Assembly (NCBI GenBank): GCA_040757555.1 | Contig: JBFLWN010000001.1 | Coordinates: 119,128-170,774 of the forward strand | DNA length: 51,647 nt | From: Patescibacteria group bacterium | GTDB lineage: Bacteria; Patescibacteriota; Minisyncoccia; UBA6257; GWB1-50-10 | Direction of reading: 5' to 3' | Part shown: one piece after another, positions 2,201 to 39,126 of the stretch | How the letters are laid out: each line of letters begins with the position of its first letter | How positions within the stretch are numbered: the first letter of the stretch is position 1 | Position numbers and translations under genes: made by a program | The notes under the pieces: model-generated | The model's database searches: none | Seen by the model: only the letters and a program-made list of their open reading frames with translations | What the model was told of the DNA's origin: nothing

Positions 2201-2521
2201 TTAGAAAATAGTTATCCAATCAAAATTCCTCAAGTCTCCGTAGGAAACCGTGAAGTCTTTGTTTTTAAAACTCACTTCCTTTATTTCTTTTTTCTTTTTC
2301 ACCCCTTCTTTTCCATCCCTCAAAGAAAAAGTGAATAGAAGTTTACCGAAAAATATACTCGATTTTTTTGGATTTTTAGTAACAACAATCTTTTTTACCT
2401 TTCCCGAAATTTTATAATCCTTCTTTTCAAATGAAACTGTTTCTCCTATAAACTTTTCAAGACTCTCTTCTGCGACTGCAAGCGCATTAAAAACCCTTTG
2501 GGGAGACATTGTTCGAGACAT
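2201..2521 (-). CDS. Small basic hypothetical protein
   Basis: 106 aa; GAGGTG SD 4 nt before the ATG; TTGACA-N17-TAAAAA upstream (2584-2556). Confidence 0.6.
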   Translation of the reverse strand: MSRTMSPQRVFNALAVAEESLEKFIGETVSFEKKDYKISGKVKKIVVTKNPKKSSIFFGKLLFTFSLRDGKEGVKKKKEIKEVSFKNKDFTVSYGDLRNFDWITIF

Positions 2522-2634
2522 TATTCACCTCTTCTGTTTTTGATTTACTGCATTCTTTTTACAAGAACCCATGTTGTTTGTCAAAATTTCTCTATATACT
2601 TGATACTTCATACCAAATACCTAATACTTTTTCT

Positions 2635-3690
2635 ATGAAGATTCTCGCTATAGAAACATCGTGTGACGATACTGCAATTGCACTTATAGAGGCGTCCGGC
2701 ACAACGTCCGCACCAAAATTCAAAGTTCTGAAAAGTATCATATCATCGCAAATTGAAGTGCATCGCCCGTGGGGCGGTGTGGTTCCTAACCTCGCAAAAC
2801 GAGAGCACATCAAAAATCTTCCAAAGATTTTTGATAAGTTAAAAATTAAAGGTGAAAAATTAAAAATTGATGCAATCTGTGTCACTGTGGGGCCCGGACT
2901 TGAACCAGCACTTTGGGCGGGAATCACTTTTGCAGAAGAAATATATAAAAAACTGAAAACTGAAAATAAAAAAATGAAGCTTATTGGGATAAATCACCTC
3001 GAGGGACACCTCTACAGTTTTTTGCTTTCGCAAAAAACCAAAACATCAATTTCCAATTCTCAATTTTCAAATAAAACTAAAAATAATTTCCCTGCAATTG
3101 CGCTTATTGTAAGTGGTGGACACACCATTCTTCTTCATATGCAGTCACCAATAAAATGGAAAAAACTTGGGGAGACAAAAGATGATGCGGTGGGAGAATC
3201 GTTTGATAAAGTGGCAAAAATGCTTGGATTTCCTTACCCTGGCGGACCCGAAATACAACGCCTTGCGGAAAAAGGGAATGTAAACGCCATACGATTCCCC
3301 CGTCCAATGATCGGCTCAAAAGATTATAACTTCAGTTATTCGGGGCTTAAAACTTCAGTACTGTATTATCTTCGTGATAATGCAAAAACAAAAAAAGAAG
3401 ATGTGGCTGCAAGTTTTCAAGAAGCGGCACTCGATGTACTCATAAAAAAAACCGAGCGGGCAGCACGTGAATATGGAGTAAAATCAATTTTTCTTTCCGG
3501 TGGTGTTGCGGCAAATAAGGAGCTTCGAAAAAAATTAACAGTGTTAAGTTCAAAATTAAAAATTAATTTTATTGCTCCTCCAATGGACTTCAACACTGAC
3601 AATGCGGTGATGATTGCCGTTGCGGGATATATGAGTATGCTCCGCAAAAAGAACAAAAAACTTATTGCGAACGGAAACATGGGGATATAA
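2635..3690 (+). CDS. tsaD: tRNA t6A37 threonylcarbamoyltransferase TsaD
   Basis: MKILAIETSCDDT start (moved from 2509 in the track); GPGL, NHLEGH, VSGGHT, DDAVGESFDKVA, GGVAAN and TDNAVMIA motifs. Confidence 0.97.
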   Translation: MKILAIETSCDDTAIALIEASGTTSAPKFKVLKSIISSQIEVHRPWGGVVPNLAKREHIKNLPKIFDKLKIKGEKLKIDAICVTVGPGLEPALWAGITFAEEIYKKLKTENKKMKLIGINHLEGHLYSFLLSQKTKTSISNSQFSNKTKNNFPAIALIVSGGHTILLHMQSPIKWKKLGETKDDAVGESFDKVAKMLGFPYPGGPEIQRLAEKGNVNAIRFPRPMIGSKDYNFSYSGLKTSVLYYLRDNAKTKKEDVAASFQEAALDVLIKKTERAAREYGVKSIFLSGGVAANKELRKKLTVLSSKLKINFIAPPMDFNTDNAVMIAVAGYMSMLRKKNKKLIANGNMGI

Positions 3691-4133: not shown

Positions 4134-6266
4134 ATGGAACTTATTACTGGGGCATACGAACCGAAGGAAACTGAATCTAAAATATACGAACAGTGGGAAC
4201 AATCCGGGTATTTTAATCCGGACAATCTTTCTGTGGAGAAAGACGCAAAAAATTATATTGTTTACATGCCACTCCCCAACGTAACGGGAACACTCCATAT
4301 GGGGCATGCACTGAATAACACTATTCAGGATATCGTTATTCGCTATCATCGAATGAATGGATATAGAACACTCTGGCTTCCCGGCACCGATCACGCGGGT
4401 ATCGCGACACAATATGTGGTCGAAAAAGAGTTGAAGAAAAAAGGAATAAGCCGTTTTGAACTTGGACGCGAAAAATTTATCGAAAAAGTATGGGAATGGA
4501 AAAACCAGTATGGGAACACCATTATTAGCCAATTAAAAAAACTCGGGGTTTCGTGTGATTGGTCTCGCATTCGATTCACTATGGATGAAGCATATGCAAA
4601 AGATATTCAAAATGCGTTTGTGCATTATCACGAAAAAGGGTTTCTCTATCGTGGAAAACGCGTGGTAAACTGGTGCCCACGATGTGGCACAAGTCTCTCT
4701 GAACTTGAGCTTGAATATAAAGATGAAAAATCAAAACTCTGGTACATAAAATATCCCCTCACGGACAAAACGGGATATGTGGTTGTCGCTACCACGCGAC
4801 CGGAAACAATGTTGGGTGATACTGCGGTTGCGGTAAATCCAAAAGATGAACGATATAAAAACTTAGTTGGAAAAACACTTCTTCTTCCGATTATGCATCG
4901 CGAAATCCCCATTATTACCGACGATGCGATTGATATGGAATTTGGTACGGGAGCAGTAAAAGTCACCCCCGCACACGATATGGTTGATTTTGAAATAGGG
5001 GAACGACACACACTTGAAGTAATACAAGTGATTGATGAACGCGGGAAAATGAATGAAAGCGCGGGAATATATAACGGGATGAAAGCGGAAGAGGCGCGGG
5101 GAAAAATTATTGAAAAATTAAAAGAAGAGGGACTTCTCGAAAAAGAGGAGGAGTATGATCATCGTGTGGCAATTTGTTATCGGTGTGGGCACGTAATTGA
5201 ACCAATCCCCTCACTTCAATGGTTTTTAAAAATGAATGATCTCGCAAAAAATGCACTCGACGCCGTCAAATCAGGAAAAGTAAAAATTATTCCTAATAAC
5301 TTCGAAAAGAAATATTTCGATTGGCTCGAAAATATTCGCGATTGGACAATTTCGCGTCAGATTTGGTGGGGGCACCGTCTGCCGGTTTGGTTTTGTACAA
5401 ATCAACAAACCACAGAAAATTATATTGTTTCAATCGAAAAACCAGACACGTGTCCGTTTTGTAAAAACTGTGATATGGAACAAGCCCCCGATGTGTTGGA
5501 TACGTGGTTTTCTTCGGCGCTCTGGCCATTTGCGGGGCTTTCCGAATCAGATCTCAAAAACTATTATCCGGGAACAACACTTATCACCGCGCGGGATATT
5601 TTGAATCTCTGGGTAGCACGCATGATTTATTCGGGAATAGAATTTAAAAAAGAACTTCCGTTCATGAATGTATTCATCAATGGCACCATACTCACCAAAG
5701 ATGGAAAGCGCATGTCAAAAAGTTTGGGTACCGGCATCGATCCATTAAAATATATTGACCAATATGGAGCGGATGCCACGCGGTTTGGAATTATGTGGCA
5801 AGCAAACGGACAAGATATTCGGTGGGACGAAACCGCAATTACCGCAGGAAAAAAATTCGCAAATAAATTGTGGAATGCATCGAGGTTTGTATTGCAACAA
5901 ACTGAACACTTAAAACAAAAACCCGGAGATATCACCCCCATTACGGAAGCGGATAAAAAAATTCTCGGGGCACTTGGAGAAATAAAGAAAAGCGTAAAGA
6001 AAGATATCGAAGAATTTGAATTTTCAAAACCACTTCACAATGCATATGATTTCTTTTGGCATGAATTTTGTGATGTATACCTCGAAACATCAAAAGAACA
6101 GATAAAAGACGAAAAACTATCCGAAAACACAAAAACGATACTTCTTCACGTCCTCCTCTCGTCGCTTAAAATATTTCACCCATTTATCCCGTTTGTGACA
6201 GAAGAAATCTATTCCTATATTCCACTTGAAAATAAAAAGAAATATCTCATGATTGAAGAGTGGTAA
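4134..6266 (+). CDS. valS: Valine--tRNA ligase (short form without the C-terminal coiled coil)
   Basis: PNVTGTLHMGHA (HIGH), GTDHAGIATQ, ATTRPET, ISRQIWWGH and RMSKS; 710 aa. Confidence 0.97.
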   Translation: MELITGAYEPKETESKIYEQWEQSGYFNPDNLSVEKDAKNYIVYMPLPNVTGTLHMGHALNNTIQDIVIRYHRMNGYRTLWLPGTDHAGIATQYVVEKELKKKGISRFELGREKFIEKVWEWKNQYGNTIISQLKKLGVSCDWSRIRFTMDEAYAKDIQNAFVHYHEKGFLYRGKRVVNWCPRCGTSLSELELEYKDEKSKLWYIKYPLTDKTGYVVVATTRPETMLGDTAVAVNPKDERYKNLVGKTLLLPIMHREIPIITDDAIDMEFGTGAVKVTPAHDMVDFEIGERHTLEVIQVIDERGKMNESAGIYNGMKAEEARGKIIEKLKEEGLLEKEEEYDHRVAICYRCGHVIEPIPSLQWFLKMNDLAKNALDAVKSGKVKIIPNNFEKKYFDWLENIRDWTISRQIWWGHRLPVWFCTNQQTTENYIVSIEKPDTCPFCKNCDMEQAPDVLDTWFSSALWPFAGLSESDLKNYYPGTTLITARDILNLWVARMIYSGIEFKKELPFMNVFINGTILTKDGKRMSKSLGTGIDPLKYIDQYGADATRFGIMWQANGQDIRWDETAITAGKKFANKLWNASRFVLQQTEHLKQKPGDITPITEADKKILGALGEIKKSVKKDIEEFEFSKPLHNAYDFFWHEFCDVYLETSKEQIKDEKLSENTKTILLHVLLSSLKIFHPFIPFVTEEIYSYIPLENKKKYLMIEEW

Positions 6267-6273
6267 TGCCTTT

Positions 6274-6993
6274 ATGCTTTTTTTAACCCTCATTCTTACC
6301 CTCCTCTGTGCATGCATCCCGAGCATTGTGTGGCTTCTCTTTTTCTTGCGTGAAGATGCGCGTCCAGAGCCCAAACGACTCATCCTTTATACATTTGGGG
6401 CGGGGGCGTTTGTAAGTCTTTTTGTACTCGTTGTCCAATATATATTTCAACAATCGGTGATTGAACTCGGGGGAAGTATTATTGTTCTCATCATGGGATT
6501 GGCACTTGTGGAAGAACTATTTAAATTTATCGCGGCATATTGGGCAATAGACAAAGATAAAGCCTTTAATGAACCGGTTGATGCTATGATTTACATGATT
6601 GTTGCCGCACTCGGATTTGCAACAGTAGAAAATTTATTTGTGCTCGGTAATTCATTCAGTGTTATTAATCTTGCGTCGTTTTCGGTCGTCACCACCACAC
6701 TCCTTCTCAGATTCATCGGTGCTACACTCCTCCACAGTATTTCGTCTGCGCTTGTTGGGTTTTATTGGGCAAAAGGAAAACTACTGCAAAAAAAGAAAAA
6801 ATTCATTTTTATTGGTATTCTCTTTGCGACACTTATTCACGGAACATTTAATTATCTCATTGAATATTTTCAGGACAGAAATCTCCTTGTGTATCCGAGT
6901 ATATTCCTTCTTATCACTCTGTTTTTTATCTTTATCGACTTCGAAAAATTGAAGGAAATTTGGAAAAACAAATATCCTCGAGAAACAATATAG
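6274..6993 (+). CDS. PrsW-family intramembrane metalloprotease
   Basis: EELFKF, GFATVEN, LLHS and HGTFN motifs; multi-pass membrane protein. Likely start is MLFLTL at 6274. Confidence 0.85.
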   Translation: MLFLTLILTLLCACIPSIVWLLFFLREDARPEPKRLILYTFGAGAFVSLFVLVVQYIFQQSVIELGGSIIVLIMGLALVEELFKFIAAYWAIDKDKAFNEPVDAMIYMIVAALGFATVENLFVLGNSFSVINLASFSVVTTTLLLRFIGATLLHSISSALVGFYWAKGKLLQKKKKFIFIGILFATLIHGTFNYLIEYFQDRNLLVYPSIFLLITLFFIFIDFEKLKEIWKNKYPRETI

Positions 6994-26281: not shown

Positions 26282-27226
26282 TTATACACTAAATACTTCA
26301 CGAGCAATTTTTCTTACCGCTCTTCTTGCTCTTATTTTCTGTCCTTCGGTTTTGATATTCGGTTTTGCATATTTTCCATGAAAAAAATGAATTCGTGGGG
26401 AATAGAGACTTACCACTCGTTCGGGATATTTTTTTCTTGTGGTTCTCAAAATTTCCGAACACTCGGTTGGTGAAACCGGGTTCCATATTCCCTTAAGCCA
26501 CAAATTATGACTCTTTGCGCCAAGACGGGGAATACACGCACAGAACGCAACCTCATACACCTCGAGGGTGTCGAGCGCAAATTGTGCCGTTTCAAGGGCC
26601 TTCCGCACCGGATCTTCCACAAGTGGGGGACCAATTAATACGTTTGCGCCAACTCTTGCGCCATGCGAGCGAACAAACTTTGAAAAACGAATAAAATCAT
26701 TCAATGTGCATTCTTTGTGTATGATCTTCAAGTCATCATTATTCGCAACCTCGAGGCCGGTAAACATCACTATATACGGTTTGAATTCGGTATCCATGGC
26801 AAAAAATATTTCTTCCGCCCTCATTTTTGCCAATTCTTTGTAATCACTTTTATGTTGCGCGCGAAACATTATTTCCAACGCTTTCTGTGTTTTTGTTTTG
26901 TTCATAAGTGTCGCGCGACACTGTGTGTGTAATTCGAGATTGTGTAGCTCAACAAAACGATAAATGTGATCCCGCACCTCTTTTGGTACTTCAACAAACC
27001 AACTTCCATTTGTTTCAACCAAAATTTTCTTTTTTTTGAATATATCCTCTCGGTTTTCTTTTTTATTCACAAATTCATCAAAGTGACTAATTTGTTCAGA
27101 AATGGAAACCGGAATAGGCGACACACAATTCTTCATTGTATGAAATGCACAAAACGTACATCCACCCTTGTTATACACGTGGTGGCAAATGTGTTCAGAA
27201 TACGGATAATATTTGAAACTCATCAC
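26282..27226 (-). CDS. Radical SAM protein, RaSEA/TIGR01210-like
   Basis: CX8CX2C motif (CHHVYNKGGCTFC), TNGSW, TGLEVAN, IHKEC, VLIGPP and LWLKGIWNP recall the archaeal TIGR01210 pattern; AAGGAG SD. Confidence 0.72.
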   Translation of the reverse strand: MMSFKYYPYSEHICHHVYNKGGCTFCAFHTMKNCVSPIPVSISEQISHFDEFVNKKENREDIFKKKKILVETNGSWFVEVPKEVRDHIYRFVELHNLELHTQCRATLMNKTKTQKALEIMFRAQHKSDYKELAKMRAEEIFFAMDTEFKPYIVMFTGLEVANNDDLKIIHKECTLNDFIRFSKFVRSHGARVGANVLIGPPLVEDPVRKALETAQFALDTLEVYEVAFCACIPRLGAKSHNLWLKGIWNPVSPTECSEILRTTRKKYPERVVSLYSPRIHFFHGKYAKPNIKTEGQKIRARRAVRKIAREVFSV

Positions 27227-27303: not shown

Positions 27304-27370
27304 TTTTTATATAAGAGACTTGTAAATTAGGATGTTTGAATGATATGCTAGGAAAAGCAGATATGGTGAT

Positions 27371-27445
27371 GCGCGCGTAGCTCAATGGTAGAGCAATCGT
27401 CTTATACACGATCGGTTCCAGGTTCGAATCCTGGCGCGCGCACCA
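27371..27445 (+). tRNA. tRNA-Ile (anticodon UAU), CCA encoded
   Basis: Full cloverleaf: GCGCGCG/CGCGCGC, GCTC/GAGC, ATCGT-CTTATAC-ACGAT, CCAGG-TTCGAAT-CCTGG, A73 and CCA. Identity is taken from the anticodon only. Confidence 0.85.
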
Positions 27446-27458
27446 ACAGAATTTGCAC

Positions 27459-27530
27459 GCGCGCTTAGCTCAGTGGTAGAGCGACTCGTTTACACCGAGT
27501 AGGCCGGGGGTTCAATCCCCTCAGCGCGCA
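27459..27530 (+). tRNA. tRNA-Val (UAC), CCA not encoded
   Basis: Cloverleaf with ACTCG-TTTACAC-CGAGT anticodon arm and GGGGG-TTCAATC-CCCTC T arm. Confidence 0.93.
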
Positions 27531-27533
27531 CAT

Positions 27534-27565
27534 AAAAATCCCCCACTTTTTAGTGGGGGATTTTT
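27534..27565. terminator. Bidirectional terminator (tRNAs / ftsH)
   Basis: AAAAATCCCCCACT-N4-AGTGGGGGATTTTT. Confidence 0.8.
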
Positions 27566-29407
27566 TTATTTCATTACCATCTGTTTTATTCCCGATGCTT
27601 TGATGATTTCGTTAAATTCTTCCTGTTCAATCGTTTCGTTTTCCATGAGTTTTCTTGCGATAATATCAAGCGTGTCTTTATTTGTAGTGATAATTTTCTT
27701 TGCCGTCTCAAGTGATTTTTTCATAATCACATTCATTTCGGAATCAATCATCTCTCCCGTTTTTTCCGAATAATCTTTTTCCGAAGAAATCTCACGTCCC
27801 AAAAACATAAGTTCATGATTTTTTCCGAGTGTTCGCGGACCAATCACGTCGCTCATTCCATATCGTGTAATTGCTTTATGTGCAAGATCGGTTGCATATT
27901 GAATATCACTCGATGACCCAGTGCTTACATCTTTAAATATAATTGACTCTGCGGCATATCCACCGAATGATACCGCGAGATCAGCAAGAAATTGCGCCTT
28001 TGTTTTCAATCGTCGTTCTTCAATAGGAAGTTTTAATGTATATCCTCCCGCCATTCCACGACTGATAATAGTCACCTTGTGTACCGGATCGCTATCTTTC
28101 AGTGTTGCCGCAACAAGTGCGTGTCCCGCTTCATGATATGCAGTGATTTCTCTTTCTTTCTGGATCGTCACGCGCGAACGTCGTGCGGGACCAAGTAATA
28201 CTTTTTCAATTGAATTCAATATATCGTCCTGTGTCACCTTCTTTCTTCCTGCGCGCGCAGTTACAATTGCCGCTTCGTTCAAAAGGTTCGCGAGATCCGC
28301 GCCGGCAAACCCCGGCGTACGCGTTGCCACCACTTTCAAATTCACCGATTCATCAAGTGGTTTTCCTTTTGTGTGAATTTTCAATATATCTTCTCGATCA
28401 TGAAGATCCGGCATATCAAGGAGCACGCGTCGGTCGAAACGTCCCGGACGGAGTAGCGCTTGATCCAAAATATCGGGACGATTGGTTGCTGCCATCACAA
28501 TTACATTGGTATCTCGTTCAAATCCATCCATTTCCACAAGAATCTGGTTTAATGTTTGTTCGCGCTCATCGTGTCCGCCTCCAAGTCCCGCTCCGCGTTC
28601 ACGTCCCACCGCGTCTATTTCATCAATAAAAATGATTGAGGGAGCTGCTTTCTTCGCGGTTTGGAACAAATCACGAACACGCGATGCGCCAACCCCTACA
28701 AACATTTCAACAAACTCTGATGCCGAAAGGTGAAAAAAAGGAACATTACTTTCTCCCGCAACTGCACGAGCAAGCAGTGTCTTTCCGGTTCCCGGAGGAC
28801 CCATAAGCAATACTCCGCGAGGAATCTTTGCACCAATATCCAAAAATTTTTTCGGATTTTTCAAAAAATCCACCACCTCCTCCAACTCTTCTTTTGATTC
28901 TTTCAAACCCGCGACATCTTTAAATGTAATTTTGTCTTTATCTTGAGAAAAAAGACGAATATTTATTTTTCCAAATGACATTACTTGATTTGCTCCGCCC
29001 TTCGCTTGTCTAAAAATAAACCAGAAGAAAAAGACCATAAGGAATATTGGAAGTAGTGTAGGAATCAAAATACTCATCCAATATTTAAATCCACTTGGAT
29101 CTTCGATGGTAATACTCACTTTTCTTAATTTTTCCTTATCAACTCCATAATTTGAAAGTGTTTCCACAATTCCGCTCTCACTTTCTTTTTTCGAAATAGC
29201 GGCCGAATCATCGGAAAGTGTAATTTTTAAATCATTCCCACTAATCAAAATGTTTTTTACTCCGTCGGTATTCACCTTATCCGCAAGTTCACTCATGTTT
29301 ATTGTTTTCGGTGGCGTTCCTTCCATCTCAAAAATAAATGAGAAAATCACCGTAACAAATAACAAAAGGGTAATTGCAAAAATCAAATTCTTACTTAAAT
29401 TTTTCAT
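27566..29407 (-). CDS. ftsH: ATP-dependent zinc metalloprotease FtsH
   Basis: Two TM segments, [21 protein letters not shown] and HEAGH. Confidence 0.98.
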
Positions 29408-29456
29408 ATGTTTCCACTATCATAACGCATCGGCCTTTTTCTGTAAAATGAAAATA

Positions 29457-29482
29457 AAAAAGCCGTTATTATACGGCTTTTT
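29457..29482 (-). terminator. Terminator-like hairpin
   Basis: AAAAAGCCGT-N6-ACGGCTTTTT. Confidence 0.65.
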
Positions 29483-29488
29483 ATTAAA

Positions 29489-29758
29489 TTATTTTCCTGT
29501 GTCTATTATATTATTTAAACGTTTTACAATTGCTTTAAAATCAAAATTATCTTCGAGAAGAAAATCGACTGAGATTTCCTTTGTAGTTGGAAGTGTTATT
29601 GCGGCACTTACAGCCTTTGAGGTGTTTTTACGCACTTGCACAATCTTAATCTTGAATCCTTTAATTCTCCCACGTTTTTCAAGTTTCTGAAGCGCGTTTT
29701 CTACGCTTCCACGAAGAGAATTCATTTTGTCCTGAAAATTTCTAGGAAACATTACCAA
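29489..29758 (-). CDS. Small basic hypothetical protein
   Basis: 89 aa (start 29758 TTG or 29752 ATG); AAGGAG SD; TTGCAA-N17-TATTAT upstream. Confidence 0.6.
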   Translation of the reverse strand: MVMFPRNFQDKMNSLRGSVENALQKLEKRGRIKGFKIKIVQVRKNTSKAVSAAITLPTTKEISVDFLLEDNFDFKAIVKRLNNIIDTGK

Positions 29759-29840
29759 GGTATTTCTCCTTTTATTACGTTAATAAATCAGTTAAACAAC
29801 TGGTACTATAATAAAACAAAATAAGAAATATTGCAAGACC

Positions 29841-29874
29841 TATTAAAAACCCCCGTCGACGGGGGTTTTTAATA
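29841..29874. terminator. Perfect 34-bp palindrome, probably the rpsA terminator
   Basis: TATTAAAAACCCCCGTC|GACGGGGGTTTTTAATA. Confidence 0.7.
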
Positions 29875-29883
29875 ATGCTTTTT

Positions 29884-30966
29884 CTATTTTAATTTCAAAA
29901 GTATCTTTCTTTCTGCTGGAACCAGACTTTCAACAGTAAATGAATATTCTTTTCCAATTCCAAGTTGTTTTTTCATCTCTTCTACACTTCCAAATGAGGC
30001 AACATGCACCTGACCTTGTATTTCTCCATCGAGATTTACAATAGCACCAAATGGGTGAAAGCTGTGGACTATCCCAGAAAGCTCTTGTCCTTCTTTATAT
30101 TTTTCTCCCACGTTCGTCCACGGATCGCTGCGAAGCGCTCGAAGTGACAGTGAAATTTTTCCGTCTCTGATGTCGGTAATTTTTGCTTTTACCGCGTCAT
30201 CAATTTTTACAATTTCCTTTGGATTCTCAACAATGCGATATCCGAGTTCTGATATATGGATTAATCCCTCAAGTGCTGGGTTGTCGGTAAATCGAATGAA
30301 TACTCCAAAGTCGGCAACACCGGAAACCACTCCATCAATGATTTGTCCCACCTGATAATTCTGTACCAATTCTTTTGTACTTACTTCGGTCGCTGCTTTT
30401 TCGGAAACAATAAGTTTATTCGTGCGAGAATTCACATCAATGATGCGCACATCAACTTCTTTCCCGACAAGTTCTTGAAGCACTTTTCCTATTTCCTCTT
30501 TATTATTTATTGTTCTTCCCTCAAGACCATTTCCTAATTGCGAGACGGGTAAAAATGCGGGAAGTCCACGAAGTTCACCGAGCAATCCTCCTTTATTAAA
30601 AGTGGTAAGTTTTACTTTTACTATTTCTTCCTGATCTCTCAAGTCTTGCACCTCTTCCCATGCTTTTTGTTTGTCTGCTTGAGTAAGTGAAAGTTCGATA
30701 TATCCATCTTCATTATCGATCTGCACTACTTTTGCGCCAATCACATCTCCCGGTTTCAAATTTTTTATTACATCGCGGGCATTTTGAAGTTCTCCGCGGT
30801 AGACCGCTCCTACACCATTTGCACCCAAATCAATGGTCATCATACGGACTCCCTTTTCAATAATAGTGCCTTGTACCAAGTCTCCAATGTGAAGTAAATT
30901 TAACGCCCCAAGTTCGGTTTTCACAAAATCGTTTGGTGTGTGGTCTTCTTGTTTTATTACATTCAT
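29884..30966 (-). CDS. rpsA: Short (four-domain) ribosomal protein S1
   Basis: Repeated S1 motifs (FLPVSQL, FGVFI...GLIHISEL, FGAIV); TTGACA-N17-TATCTT promoter upstream. Confidence 0.88.
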   Translation of the reverse strand: MNVIKQEDHTPNDFVKTELGALNLLHIGDLVQGTIIEKGVRMMTIDLGANGVGAVYRGELQNARDVIKNLKPGDVIGAKVVQIDNEDGYIELSLTQADKQKAWEEVQDLRDQEEIVKVKLTTFNKGGLLGELRGLPAFLPVSQLGNGLEGRTINNKEEIGKVLQELVGKEVDVRIIDVNSRTNKLIVSEKAATEVSTKELVQNYQVGQIIDGVVSGVADFGVFIRFTDNPALEGLIHISELGYRIVENPKEIVKIDDAVKAKITDIRDGKISLSLRALRSDPWTNVGEKYKEGQELSGIVHSFHPFGAIVNLDGEIQGQVHVASFGSVEEMKKQLGIGKEYSFTVESLVPAERKILLKLK

Positions 30967-31093
30967 AAACAAATTACGTACTTACTAAGATATGAGAAAA
31001 GTGTTCATGTGTCAACCCAATAAAATTACACAATTGAAAATATTGTATCTTTGGCGTAAACTAAAGCAGTAACAGTGGATCTGCTTATTTTTT

Positions 31094-38084: not shown

Positions 38085-38166
38085 GCCGAGGTGGCGAAAT
38101 TGGCAGACGCACTAGCTTTAGGAGCTAGCACCGCAAGGTATGTGGGTTCAAGTCCCACCCTCGGCA
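38085..38166 (+). tRNA. tRNA-Leu (UAG), class II, CCA not encoded
   Basis: GCCGAGG acceptor, CTAGC-TTTAGGA-GCTAG anticodon arm, long variable arm and GTGGG-TTCAAGT-CCCAC. Confidence 0.93.
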
Positions 38167-38169
38167 CAA

Positions 38170-38235: not shown

Positions 38236-39126
38236 CTATCTCTTTTTCCTTCGTGTTCCATGAAATGCCTCATGTATTTCGCGAAGTTCTTTGTTGGTAA
38301 GGTGGGTATAAATTTGAGTCGTTGAAACATTCGCGTGGCCCAAAAGCGATTGTACCGAGCGAAGATCGGCACCATTAATTAAAAGGTCTGTGGCAAACGA
38401 ATGGCGTAATTGATGGGGGTGTACTTTTTTAGGAATCCCTGCGGCGCGGGCATAACGATCAATAAGACGTTCCACGGAGCGAGGAGTAATCTTTCCAAGT
38501 GCTTTTCCGGACTTACTCAAACTCACAAACAAAAACTCCTCCGGGTCGGTTCTTTTTTTTATATATTCTTTGATTGATTTTTTCGCCCCATCGGAAAGAA
38601 ACACAATGCGTAACTTATCTCCTTTTCCGCGCACCGAAATCTCTCCTCGTTCGAGATCAATATACCGTGGAAGGTTACATAATTCCGAAAGACGAAGTCC
38701 TGTGGAAAAAAACGTTTCAAGTATCGCGCGGTCACGAATCGAACGAATGTCGTCTCCCTGCGGAGACTTCAATAATCGTTCAAGTTCTCCATAATCAAGC
38801 ACCTCAATGTCGCGTCGTGAAACTTTTGGAAGTTCAATTGCGTCCGGAGACAACACATTGTGTCCGTGTTTTATTAAATACTTTAAAAAATTCCGAATTG
38901 CAATTACATAATAACTCTGTGTATTCTTTTTTATATTTTTACGCGCAAGAAATACACGGAACGACCGTACGCGCTCTTCGGTAATCTCCTTTACCGATGT
39001 AATGTGGGCCTCTTCAAAAAATAATTTGAGATATCGCTCATAATTCTCCCTTGTTTTTGTTGAGCGATTTTTTTCTATCTCCAAATAATCTAAATATTCA
39101 CGAAAATGGCGTTCTCTATCACTCAT
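38236..39126 (-). CDS. XerC/XerD-type tyrosine recombinase
   Basis: TGLRLSEL, GKGDK, HQLRHSFAT and LLGH...TTQIY (intact R-K-H-R-H-Y); 296 aa. Confidence 0.92.
   Translation of the reverse strand: MSDRERHFREYLDYLEIEKNRSTKTRENYERYLKLFFEEAHITSVKEITEERVRSFRVFLARKNIKKNTQSYYVIAIRNFLKYLIKHGHNVLSPDAIELPKVSRRDIEVLDYGELERLLKSPQGDDIRSIRDRAILETFFSTGLRLSELCNLPRYIDLERGEISVRGKGDKLRIVFLSDGAKKSIKEYIKKRTDPEEFLFVSLSKSGKALGKITPRSVERLIDRYARAAGIPKKVHPHQLRHSFATDLLINGADLRSVQSLLGHANVSTTQIYTHLTNKELREIHEAFHGTRRKKR

Follow-up and report, generated by a model that had tools for sequence, protein, structure and literature searches.

The locus

This analysis concerns a gene for tRNA-Ile(UAU) that stands beside a tRNA-Val(UAC) gene and ftsH in a 51.6-kb stretch of one Patescibacterial genome (contig JBFLWN010000001.1); the whole stretch is called the window here, and the loci compared with it carry labels of the form L plus a number. 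According to our analysis, positions 27371-27445 most likely hold a functional tRNA-Ile(UAU), the decoder of AUA, a common codon in this organism, which makes up one half of an old ftsH-linked cassette of an AUA-decoder and a tRNA-Val, and which is the positional counterpart of tRNA-Ile2(CAU), the classical tRNA that receives lysidine from TilS. The locus contains the following features.

27371-27445, plus strand: tRNA-Ile(UAU), anticodon loop CTTATAC, found by ARAGORN and by Rfam RF00005 (75.8 bits, E=6.5e-15)
27459-27530 (approximate, the ARAGORN end being 27531), plus strand: tRNA-Val(UAC), loop TTTACAC, found by ARAGORN and Rfam (71.7 bits)
27534-27565, no strand assigned: 14-pair hairpin between an A-run and a T-run, from a terminator-like site call and the sequence
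27566-29407, minus strand: ftsH (Pfam Peptidase_M41 and AAA), the conserved neighbour of the AUA-decoder tRNA across Patescibacteria
29408-29883, no strand assigned: gap of about 480 nt between the S1 gene and ftsH, with open reading frames (ORFs) of 87 and 80 aa only and no tilS
29884-30972, minus strand: gene of an S1-domain RNA-binding protein (Pfam S1), the upstream anchor of the S1-(kinase-tilS)-ftsH block

Both tRNA genes form full-length, mismatch-free cloverleaves under the Rfam tRNA model. The isoleucine gene (GCGCGCG-TA-GCTC-AATGGTA-GAGC-A-ATCGT-CTTATAC-ACGAT-CGGTT-CCAGG-TTCGAAT-CCTGG-CGCGCGC-A-CCA) has 72 nt up to the discriminator A73 at 27442, followed by an encoded CCA at 27443-27445, and the valine gene (GCGCGCT-TA-GCTC-AGTGGTA-GAGC-G-ACTCG-TTTACAC-CGAGT-AGGCC-GGGGG-TTCAATC-CCCTC-AGCGCGC-A) has 72 nt to A73 without an encoded CCA. 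The spacer from the CCA of the first to the start of the second is 13 nt. The hairpin is likely to act as a bidirectional terminator for the tRNA cassette and for ftsH, because it lies between the 3' ends of the cassette on the plus strand and of ftsH on the minus strand.

Spread of tRNA-Ile(UAU) in Patescibacteria

GTDB, with one genome per species, was scanned with a pattern that fixed the 3' half of the D-arm and the anticodon stem and left positions 32, 34, 36 and 38 free. It returned 44 loci, namely 41 tRNA-Ile(UAU), two CAU tRNAs and one UAC tRNA, and the 41 species genomes with Ile(UAU) span more than 10 candidate classes, the labels of the metagenome-assembled genomes (MAGs) including Saccharibacteria, Paceibacterota, Kaiser-, Doudna-, Azam-, Kerfeld-, Jorgensen-, Ryan-, Colwell- and Veblenbacteria, and others. 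As the tRNA pattern biases this sample, metagenome contigs were also scanned with the FtsH protein as sole query, which gave 80 loci whose FtsH is 56-97% identical. A tRNA-Ile(UAU) gene was found just downstream of ftsH, within a few hundred nt of its 3' end, in 64 of these 80 loci, in the majority with Val(UAC) or Val(GAC) next to it; of the 16 loci without such a call, most end too near ftsH to tell. The preliminary description of this DNA considered tRNA-Ile(UAU) as rare, which is true of bacteria as a whole but does not apply to Patescibacteria, where both scans show it to be common.

Among the 106 Ile(UAU) genes collected from Patescibacteria, the acceptor strand occurs in 44 versions and the anticodon-stem strand in 41, and still the acceptor pairs are standard in 742 of 742 cases and the anticodon-stem pairs in 520 of 530, with A73 in 104 of the genes. 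Because pairing stays standard in spite of so many different stems, the structure is under selection, and these Patescibacterial genes are functional. An assembly error at the anticodon, which had been named as something that would undo the whole idea, is excluded, since 105 other Ile(UAU) genes from independent assemblies carry TAT.

The anticodon loops of the FtsH-selected set are CTTATAA (36), CTTATAC (26) and CTTATAT (2), so that A38 accounts for 56%, and C32 is universal in the 65 aligned genes (64 from metagenomes and the one from the window). An apparent invariance of C32 together with C38 in the family was discarded as an artefact of the pattern that fixes the anticodon stem, the FtsH-based sample giving the above share of A38. 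The C38 of the window gene was earlier described as Val-like; it is no hallmark of tRNA-Val and no Val relic, because it is a common state of the Ile(UAU) family itself, present in 26 of the 64 FtsH-selected loops.

A number of side observations concern this family. The cassette of the window, together with its upstream region (27304-27540), and that of L159 are inverted relative to ftsH, that is, convergent with it and with Val nearest ftsH, while in L171 (7976-8396) and most relatives the cassette is co-directional with ftsH and Ile is nearest to it. About one in five Ile(UAU) genes starts with C1-G72 in a CGG...CCG acceptor (L125, L126, L140, L143, L158, L160, L161, L171), a pair unusual for elongator tRNAs. 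Two MAGs labelled 'uncultured Gammaproteobacteria' (L132, L153) carry an Ile(UAU)-Val(GAC)-Leu(GAG) cluster of Patescibacterial type, and these bins are probably mislabelled or mixed. In L243 (2064-2136) the Ile slot, which here begins 65 nt past ftsH and has Val(UAC) downstream, is occupied by a 'tRNA-Thr(UGU)' with G1-C72 and C2-G71, whose only differences from the Ile(UAU) of L248 are A35G and two bases of the T-loop; this is a sequencing variant or else a genuine shift of the anticodon from Ile to Thr. In a six-tRNA array of a Bacillota MAG (L122:1361-1433) a Val(UAC), the UAC match of the pattern, has the D-arm and the anticodon arm of Patescibacterial Ile(UAU) (AATCGTCTTACACACGAT), with C36 as the sole difference in the loop, and an unrelated-looking Ile(UAU) lies 23 nt upstream. 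The two CAU matches of the pattern (L131:4581-4653 and L156:3066-3138) come from large cyanobacterial tRNA arrays, of a Leptolyngbya plasmid and of Lyngbya; they agree with Patescibacterial Ile(UAU) genes in the D-arm, the anticodon stem, the variable loop and the T-stem, but have an odd acceptor (TACATAC). Among 120 phage-contig loci with tRNA-Ile(UAU), which show other anticodon stems and mixed bases at position 38, none is of the Patescibacterial type.

TilS, tRNA-Ile2(CAU) and the ftsH-linked slot

One FtsH-selected locus, L201, led to the counterpart of the gene. Its slot tRNA has the anticodon CAU and stands 5 nt upstream of Val(GAC), and the gene just upstream of its ftsH encodes TilS (PF01171 PP-loop, E=2.6e-53, and PF09179). 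A tblastn search with E. coli TilS returned nothing in any Patescibacterial locus, but it also missed the real TilS of L201 and was thus too insensitive; the L201 protein replaced it as the query. In 125 Patescibacterial loci the latter matched only L201, L204 and L213, none of which has Ile(UAU), and 52 loci that extend far enough in both directions have UAU without a tilS adjoining ftsH. No tilS was found in the window, including the gap between the S1 gene and ftsH, either by an ORF scan or by tblastn with L201 TilS. The ORFs in the corresponding gap of UAU loci where it is large (L214, L181, L187, L247, L215, L208 and others) contain no PP-loop SGGxDS motif.

Seven further TilS loci have the same layout, S1 protein - nucleotide kinase - tilS - ftsH, and the kinase and tilS take up 1.65-1.8 kb between the S1 gene and ftsH in these Moranbacteria-like relatives; the S1 anchor is syntenic in L201 and L251-L262. 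Where the TilS loci are long enough, they continue with a DUF7544 protein, a tRNA(CAU) and a tRNA-Val(GAC), and all seven distinct TilS-bearing loci with enough downstream sequence have the tRNA(CAU)-Val(GAC) pair and none has UAU. Over nt 5-62 the CAU tRNA of L257 shares 87-91% identity with E. coli genes that are annotated as tRNA-Ile and have a CAT anticodon, one of which reads GGCCCCTTAGCTCAGTGGTTAGAGCAGGCGACTCATAATCGCTTGGTC... and equals positions 8-48 of L257 but for one base; generally, the D-arm, anticodon arm and variable loop of the Moranbacteria-like CAU tRNA nearly match those of E. coli tRNA-Ile2. The slot tRNA of the TilS-bearing loci is thus recognisable as tRNA-Ile2. The slot holds tRNA-Ile2(CAU) when tilS adjoins ftsH, and tRNA-Ile(UAU) when it does not.

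Core identity of the window Ile(UAU) amounts to 64-71% with the Moranbacterial CAU tRNAs, 66% with E. coli tRNA-Ile2 and 58% with its own Val neighbour. From these data, we may suggest that across most sampled Patescibacteria the TilS and tRNA-Ile2(CAU) system was replaced in place by tRNA-Ile(UAU) at the ftsH-linked locus, the Moranbacteria-like clade keeping tilS-ftsH-tRNA-Ile2(CAU); we give this wider proposal an even chance. For the organism of the window itself, decoding of AUA independently of TilS, as put forward in the preliminary description, is likely. One part of that claim stands, as there is a real tRNA-Ile(UAU) that reads AUA, and the independence from TilS is plausible, though not proven from the window, because tilS is absent both from the window and from the ftsH-adjacent position kept by the TilS-bearing relatives.

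The alternative in which tilS and a tRNA-Ile2(CAU) are encoded elsewhere in the genome, UAU being a second, redundant decoder as in the intermediate of the model of Taniguchi et al., seems unlikely to us. It would be compatible with the 51.6 kb of genome seen, with the existence of TilS within Patescibacteria and with reports of some bacteria that have both lysidine-AU and UAU decoders (PMC3575796). It is opposed by the absence of tilS from the conserved ftsH-adjacent position in the window and in the 52 UAU loci, by the lack of UAU at all seven slots of the TilS-bearing clade, and by the labels on its relatives: the best 120 relatives of L201 TilS that have a taxon name are Moranbacteria or unclassified Parcubacteria/Patescibacteria, except for one labelled Bathyarchaeia.

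In the Moranbacteria loci L251 and L252 (19166-20578) a reverse transcriptase gene (RVT_1) lies beside one for a bAvd protein, about 5 kb from the tRNA-Ile2(CAU)/Val pair; the unit resembles a diversity-generating retroelement.

Likeness to the adjacent tRNA-Val(UAC)

The gene had been interpreted as a product of duplication and anticodon shift from the neighbouring tRNA-Val. The sequence facts behind that interpretation are correct: both tRNAs have 72 nt, they share 22 of the first 24 nt and 7 of the last 8, they are 13 nt apart, and their loops, CTTATAC and TTTACAC, are the same except at positions 32 and 36. The special likeness, however, does not rise above the background. Among 1337 comparisons of 72-nt Ile(UAU) and Val tRNAs from different Patescibacteria genomes, the number of shared positions in the first 24 nt has its mode and its average at 19, and it is at least 22 in 6%. 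Over the whole molecule the two window tRNAs agree at 44 of 69 positions without the anticodon (~64%) and at 32 of 55 (58%) when the acceptor stem is left out too; the anticodon stems match at one of five positions per strand, and the variable loop and T-arm differ. The resemblance is that of a generic D-arm and a G/C acceptor stem often used by both families, and not one of descent.

The acceptor stems point in the same direction. The commonest stems of the GTDB sample are GCGCGCG for Ile and GCGCGCT for Val(UAC), and close relatives of the window depart from them separately in either gene: L159 (FtsH 85%) has GCGCGCG in Ile and GGGCACT in Val, L171, whose nucleotide sequence matches that of the window at 84% across ftsH, the S1 gene and gyrA, has CGGCTCG and GGGCACA, and L161 has CGGTCCG and GCGCGCT. 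The Ile and Val acceptor stems evolve fast and independently. By permutation, acceptor identity of Ile and Val is 0.604 within genomes and 0.604 between shuffled ones (p=0.50), and permutation tests of the D-arm, anticodon stem and T-arm gave no excess similarity of same-genome pairs. Each tRNA has orthologues of its own: the window Ile is 0.62 identical to its own Val and on average 0.84 to other Ile(UAU) genes of the pattern-selected set, its nearest neighbours in the FtsH-selected set reach 0.81-0.88, and Val(UAC) orthologues of the same body occur in L144, L159, L160, L127 and L161.

Alloacceptor remoulding, in which the adjacent tRNA-Val(UAC) would have been duplicated in tandem and then have undergone a C36U shift, is therefore highly improbable, and a recent event of this kind is already contradicted. 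The adjacency and the shared ends and loop just listed speak for it, and a change at position 36 could in principle switch identity, as IleRS and ValRS, the isoleucyl- and valyl-tRNA synthetases, both rely on A35 and A73 (PMC9976931); the Bacillota Val(UAC) of L122 with its Ile(UAU)-type anticodon arm and the Thr(UGU) of L243, which shows that an anticodon change is possible in this slot, may be added. Against these points stand the dissimilar anticodon stems, variable loops, T-arms and core, the separate orthologues of both tRNAs across the phylum, the independent change of their acceptor stems in close relatives with no same-genome excess, and the content of the slot in relatives, which is Ile(UAU) or Ile2(CAU) with the sole exception of Thr(UGU) in L243 and never a Val duplicate.

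Identification of the nearest isotype by BLAST against all complete E. coli genomes was also tried; tRNA-Lys came out best (~80%, nt 8-63), which is uninformative because similarity of the D- and T-arms crosses isotypes.

The meaning of AUA

ATA is a common codon in the window, with 257 of 12,317 codons (20.9 per 1000) and 24% of the Ile codons. We compared the window codons with aligned codons of Patescibacterial orthologues (FtsH, GyrA, S1 protein, SHMT, RecA, FtsK and others). At the 65 ATA positions covered by at least three orthologues, the orthologues have on average 45% Ile, 16% Val, 18% Leu and 5% Met codons; the shares are 55% Ile and 18% Val at ATT/ATC positions and 20% Ile and 51% Val at GTN positions, and ATG positions have 52% Met. 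The Val fraction at ATA is different from that at GTN (p=9e-14) and indistinguishable from that at ATT/ATC (p=0.93). Against E. coli residues (ValRS, NusA, FtsK, SHMT, FtsH, GyrA and PNPase), the share of I is 25% in ATA columns, 40% in ATT/ATC columns and 19% in GTN columns, and the share of V in these three is 26%, 25% and 52%, respectively, with p=0.0016 for ATA versus GTN. The lower share of Ile at ATA than at ATT/ATC fits a codon placed at less conserved sites. AUA is isoleucine, as in the standard code.

Valine charging of the tRNA, which had been raised together with a reassignment of AUA, is refuted by this tabulation, and a reassigned or ambiguous AUA, whether Val through ValRS or Met through U34-G wobble, is barely credible: reading of G by U34 is possible in principle, C38 falls outside the Ile identity set of E. 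coli and ValRS mischarges tRNA-Ile in vitro in some systems (PMC9976931), but ATA positions behave in both comparisons like ATT/ATC and unlike GTN or ATG, and the major ValRS determinant C36 is absent.

Identity elements and a possible mechanism

Two further genes of the window are relevant to the modification and charging of the tRNA.

2509-3690, plus strand: tsaD, for a subunit of the transferase that makes N6-threonylcarbamoyladenosine (t6A) at position 37 (NCBIfam TIGR03723, 351 bits against a cut-off of 296)
4134-6266, plus strand: valS, for a ValRS of 710 aa (NCBIfam PRK05729, 988 bits)

The gene for IleRS, ileS, was not among the window ORFs scanned. The tsaD gene shows that the pathway which would modify A37 of ANN-reading tRNAs is encoded.

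The identity set of bacterial tRNA-Ile used here is that of E. coli (PMC9976931, Table 1). Elements of the Ile set present in the window Ile(UAU) are A73, C4-G69, U12-A23, C29-G41, A35, U36 and A37, and C4 occurs in 56 of the 65 aligned Ile(UAU) genes. Its D stem is GCTC/GAGC and its anticodon stem ATCGT/ACGAT, and the neighbouring Val has U29-A41 and C36. The latter is a listed Val determinant (PMC9976931); position 36 of the Ile(UAU) is U, and ValRS would need to accept it in order to charge this tRNA with valine. Position 34 is U, where the Ile set has G34 or lysidine-34. As the E. coli IleRS charges a UAU variant poorly (PMC3575796), an IleRS adapted in this lineage is implied.

We propose the following scheme. 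The UAU and CAU forms would be related by a change between C34 and U34 within the tRNA-Ile2 lineage, as has been modelled for Mycoplasma mobile. IleRS would charge the tRNA by means of A35, U36, A37, A73, C4-G69, U12-A23 and C29-G41. U34 would pair with the A of AUA with no lysidine, and misreading of AUG may be held low by the ribosome or by the loop context, as experiments on M. mobile and on a B. subtilis tilS deletion strain have shown for those systems. A37 is probably t6A, because TsaD is encoded and C32 is invariant, C32 being a reported determinant for the eukaryotic t6A machinery.

Several observations weigh against our interpretation of the gene as a functional decoder and counterpart of tRNA-Ile2. 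Position 38 is C where the Ile set has A38, and the D loop AATGGTA gives U16 and A21 where the set has G16 and U21, although U20 agrees. Charging by IleRS, the state of U34 and t6A37 are here deduced from sequence and by analogy. Same-genome pairs of Ile and Val with at least six of seven acceptor positions shared are slightly in excess, numbering 10 where 6.2 would be expected (p=0.044 without correction, in a sample that includes related genomes). The family means of identity, 0.638 from Ile(UAU) to slot CAU tRNAs and 0.625 to Val(UAC), lie close together, and for the whole UAU family neither group means nor diagnostic columns clearly separate an affinity to CAU from one to Val; such averages are too noisy, and therefore the orthology with tRNA-Ile2 is based mainly on position and on the tilS pattern. 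This pattern itself is essentially one evolutionary transition, in either direction, because all TilS-bearing loci belong to one clade. Finally, the 51.6-kb scope leaves room for tilS and a tRNA-Ile(CAU) elsewhere in the genome.

Relation to known systems

Decoding of AUA by UAU without tilS is known from M. mobile, Bifidobacterium and Neorickettsia (PMC3575796). The M. mobile tRNA-Ile2(UAU) (Taniguchi et al. 2013, PMC3575796) is alike in that an encoded UAU reads AUA as Ile in a small genome, tilS is missing from its expected place, the gene is proposed to have arisen from one for tRNA-Ile(CAT) through a C-to-T change at position 34, and t6A37 is likely, TsaD being encoded in the window. It differs in being a matter of one species, while the Patescibacterial trait is spread over many classes of a phylum, and the window loop has C38. 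For M. mobile the lack of tilS, an adapted IleRS (Arg at the position of E. coli Trp905), an unmodified U34 and an adapted ribosome are described (PMC3575796), whereas the window system is known from the tRNA gene and its locus.

The classical tRNA-Ile2(CAU) with TilS lysidine, of the E. coli ileX type, occupies the same slot in the TilS-bearing Patescibacteria, and E. coli tRNA-Ile2 shares with the window Ile(UAU) the D-arm, A26, C29-G41 and G30-C40, C32, the YGGTY variable loop and A73. The window gene differs from it by T34, and lysidine is therefore neither needed nor possible, and its acceptor GCGCGCG has G5-C68 instead of the C5-G68 frequent in tRNA-Ile(CAT) (PMC1635315). In the suppressor of a B. 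subtilis tilS deletion (tRNA-Ile1 G34U, PMC3919564) UAU likewise decodes AUA without TilS, with weak reading of AUG on the ribosome (PMC3919564); that tRNA is a laboratory derivative of the major tRNA-Ile1(GAU), unlike the window tRNA, which is natural, old and placed in the tRNA-Ile2 slot. Alloacceptor anticodon shifts, for example eukaryotic ones (PMC3923123), are established by the same logic of synteny as used here, but in our case the slot of relatives holds Ile-type tRNAs and no UAU tRNA with a Val body was seen.

The mechanism itself is thus already known and the window gene is typical for its phylum, while the scale of the phenomenon may be under-described. A 2026 preprint still treats tRNA-Ile(UAU) as a matter of rare cases, and in an incomplete library we found no literature that links TilS or lysidine with Patescibacteria, Candidate Phyla Radiation (CPR), Parcubacteria or Saccharibacteria in this sense. 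For the window the result is mainly corrective: a normal tRNA of its lineage, no remoulding, and the standard code at AUA. More generally, a conserved locus is usually occupied by Ile(UAU) in many Patescibacterial classes, in clean alternation with tilS and tRNA-Ile2(CAU) in one clade. This pattern offers a natural and phylogenetically broad system for studying the recognition of U34 by IleRS, the avoidance of AUG misreading without lysidine, and the order of tilS loss and the C34/U34 change. If the replacement across most sampled Patescibacteria is true, a very large radiation of bacteria would normally decode AUA free of lysidine, and IleRS and the ribosome would have to be adapted throughout the phylum to a U34 that is unprotected.

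Other genes of the window

The window is part of a cellular genome of the Patescibacteria (CPR) type, and its other genes include those of MurD, H+-pyrophosphatase, NusA, FtsK, RecA, FolD, SHMT, GyrA, XerC and PNPase. Judged by FtsH, at 85-67% identity, its closest genomes in GTDB are MAGs that bear the labels Paceibacter/Paceibacterota, Jorgensenbacteria and, in one case, Saccharibacteria. ARAGORN found three tRNA genes in total, the third, after the Ile(UAU) and Val(UAC) pair, being Leu(UAG) at 38085-38167 on the plus strand. It lies 69 nt from a gene of a XerC/XerD-type tyrosine recombinase (38236-39126, minus strand), and the Moranbacteria-like loci have a similar recombinase at a distance of a few kb from their tRNA pair.

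The ValRS encoded at 4134-6266 stops at position 695 of the 860-position profile, its C-terminal part being missing, and the next ORF after valS (6253-6993, PrsW-like) overlaps the end of the gene. Just upstream of the tRNA pair, an ORF of 314 aa on the minus strand (26282-27226) has weak, below-cut-off matches to radical-SAM tRNA-modification families (RaSEA, E=2e-8; MnmL/YtqA, E=1e-6) and no Pfam match, and in relatives it does not stand beside the tRNA.

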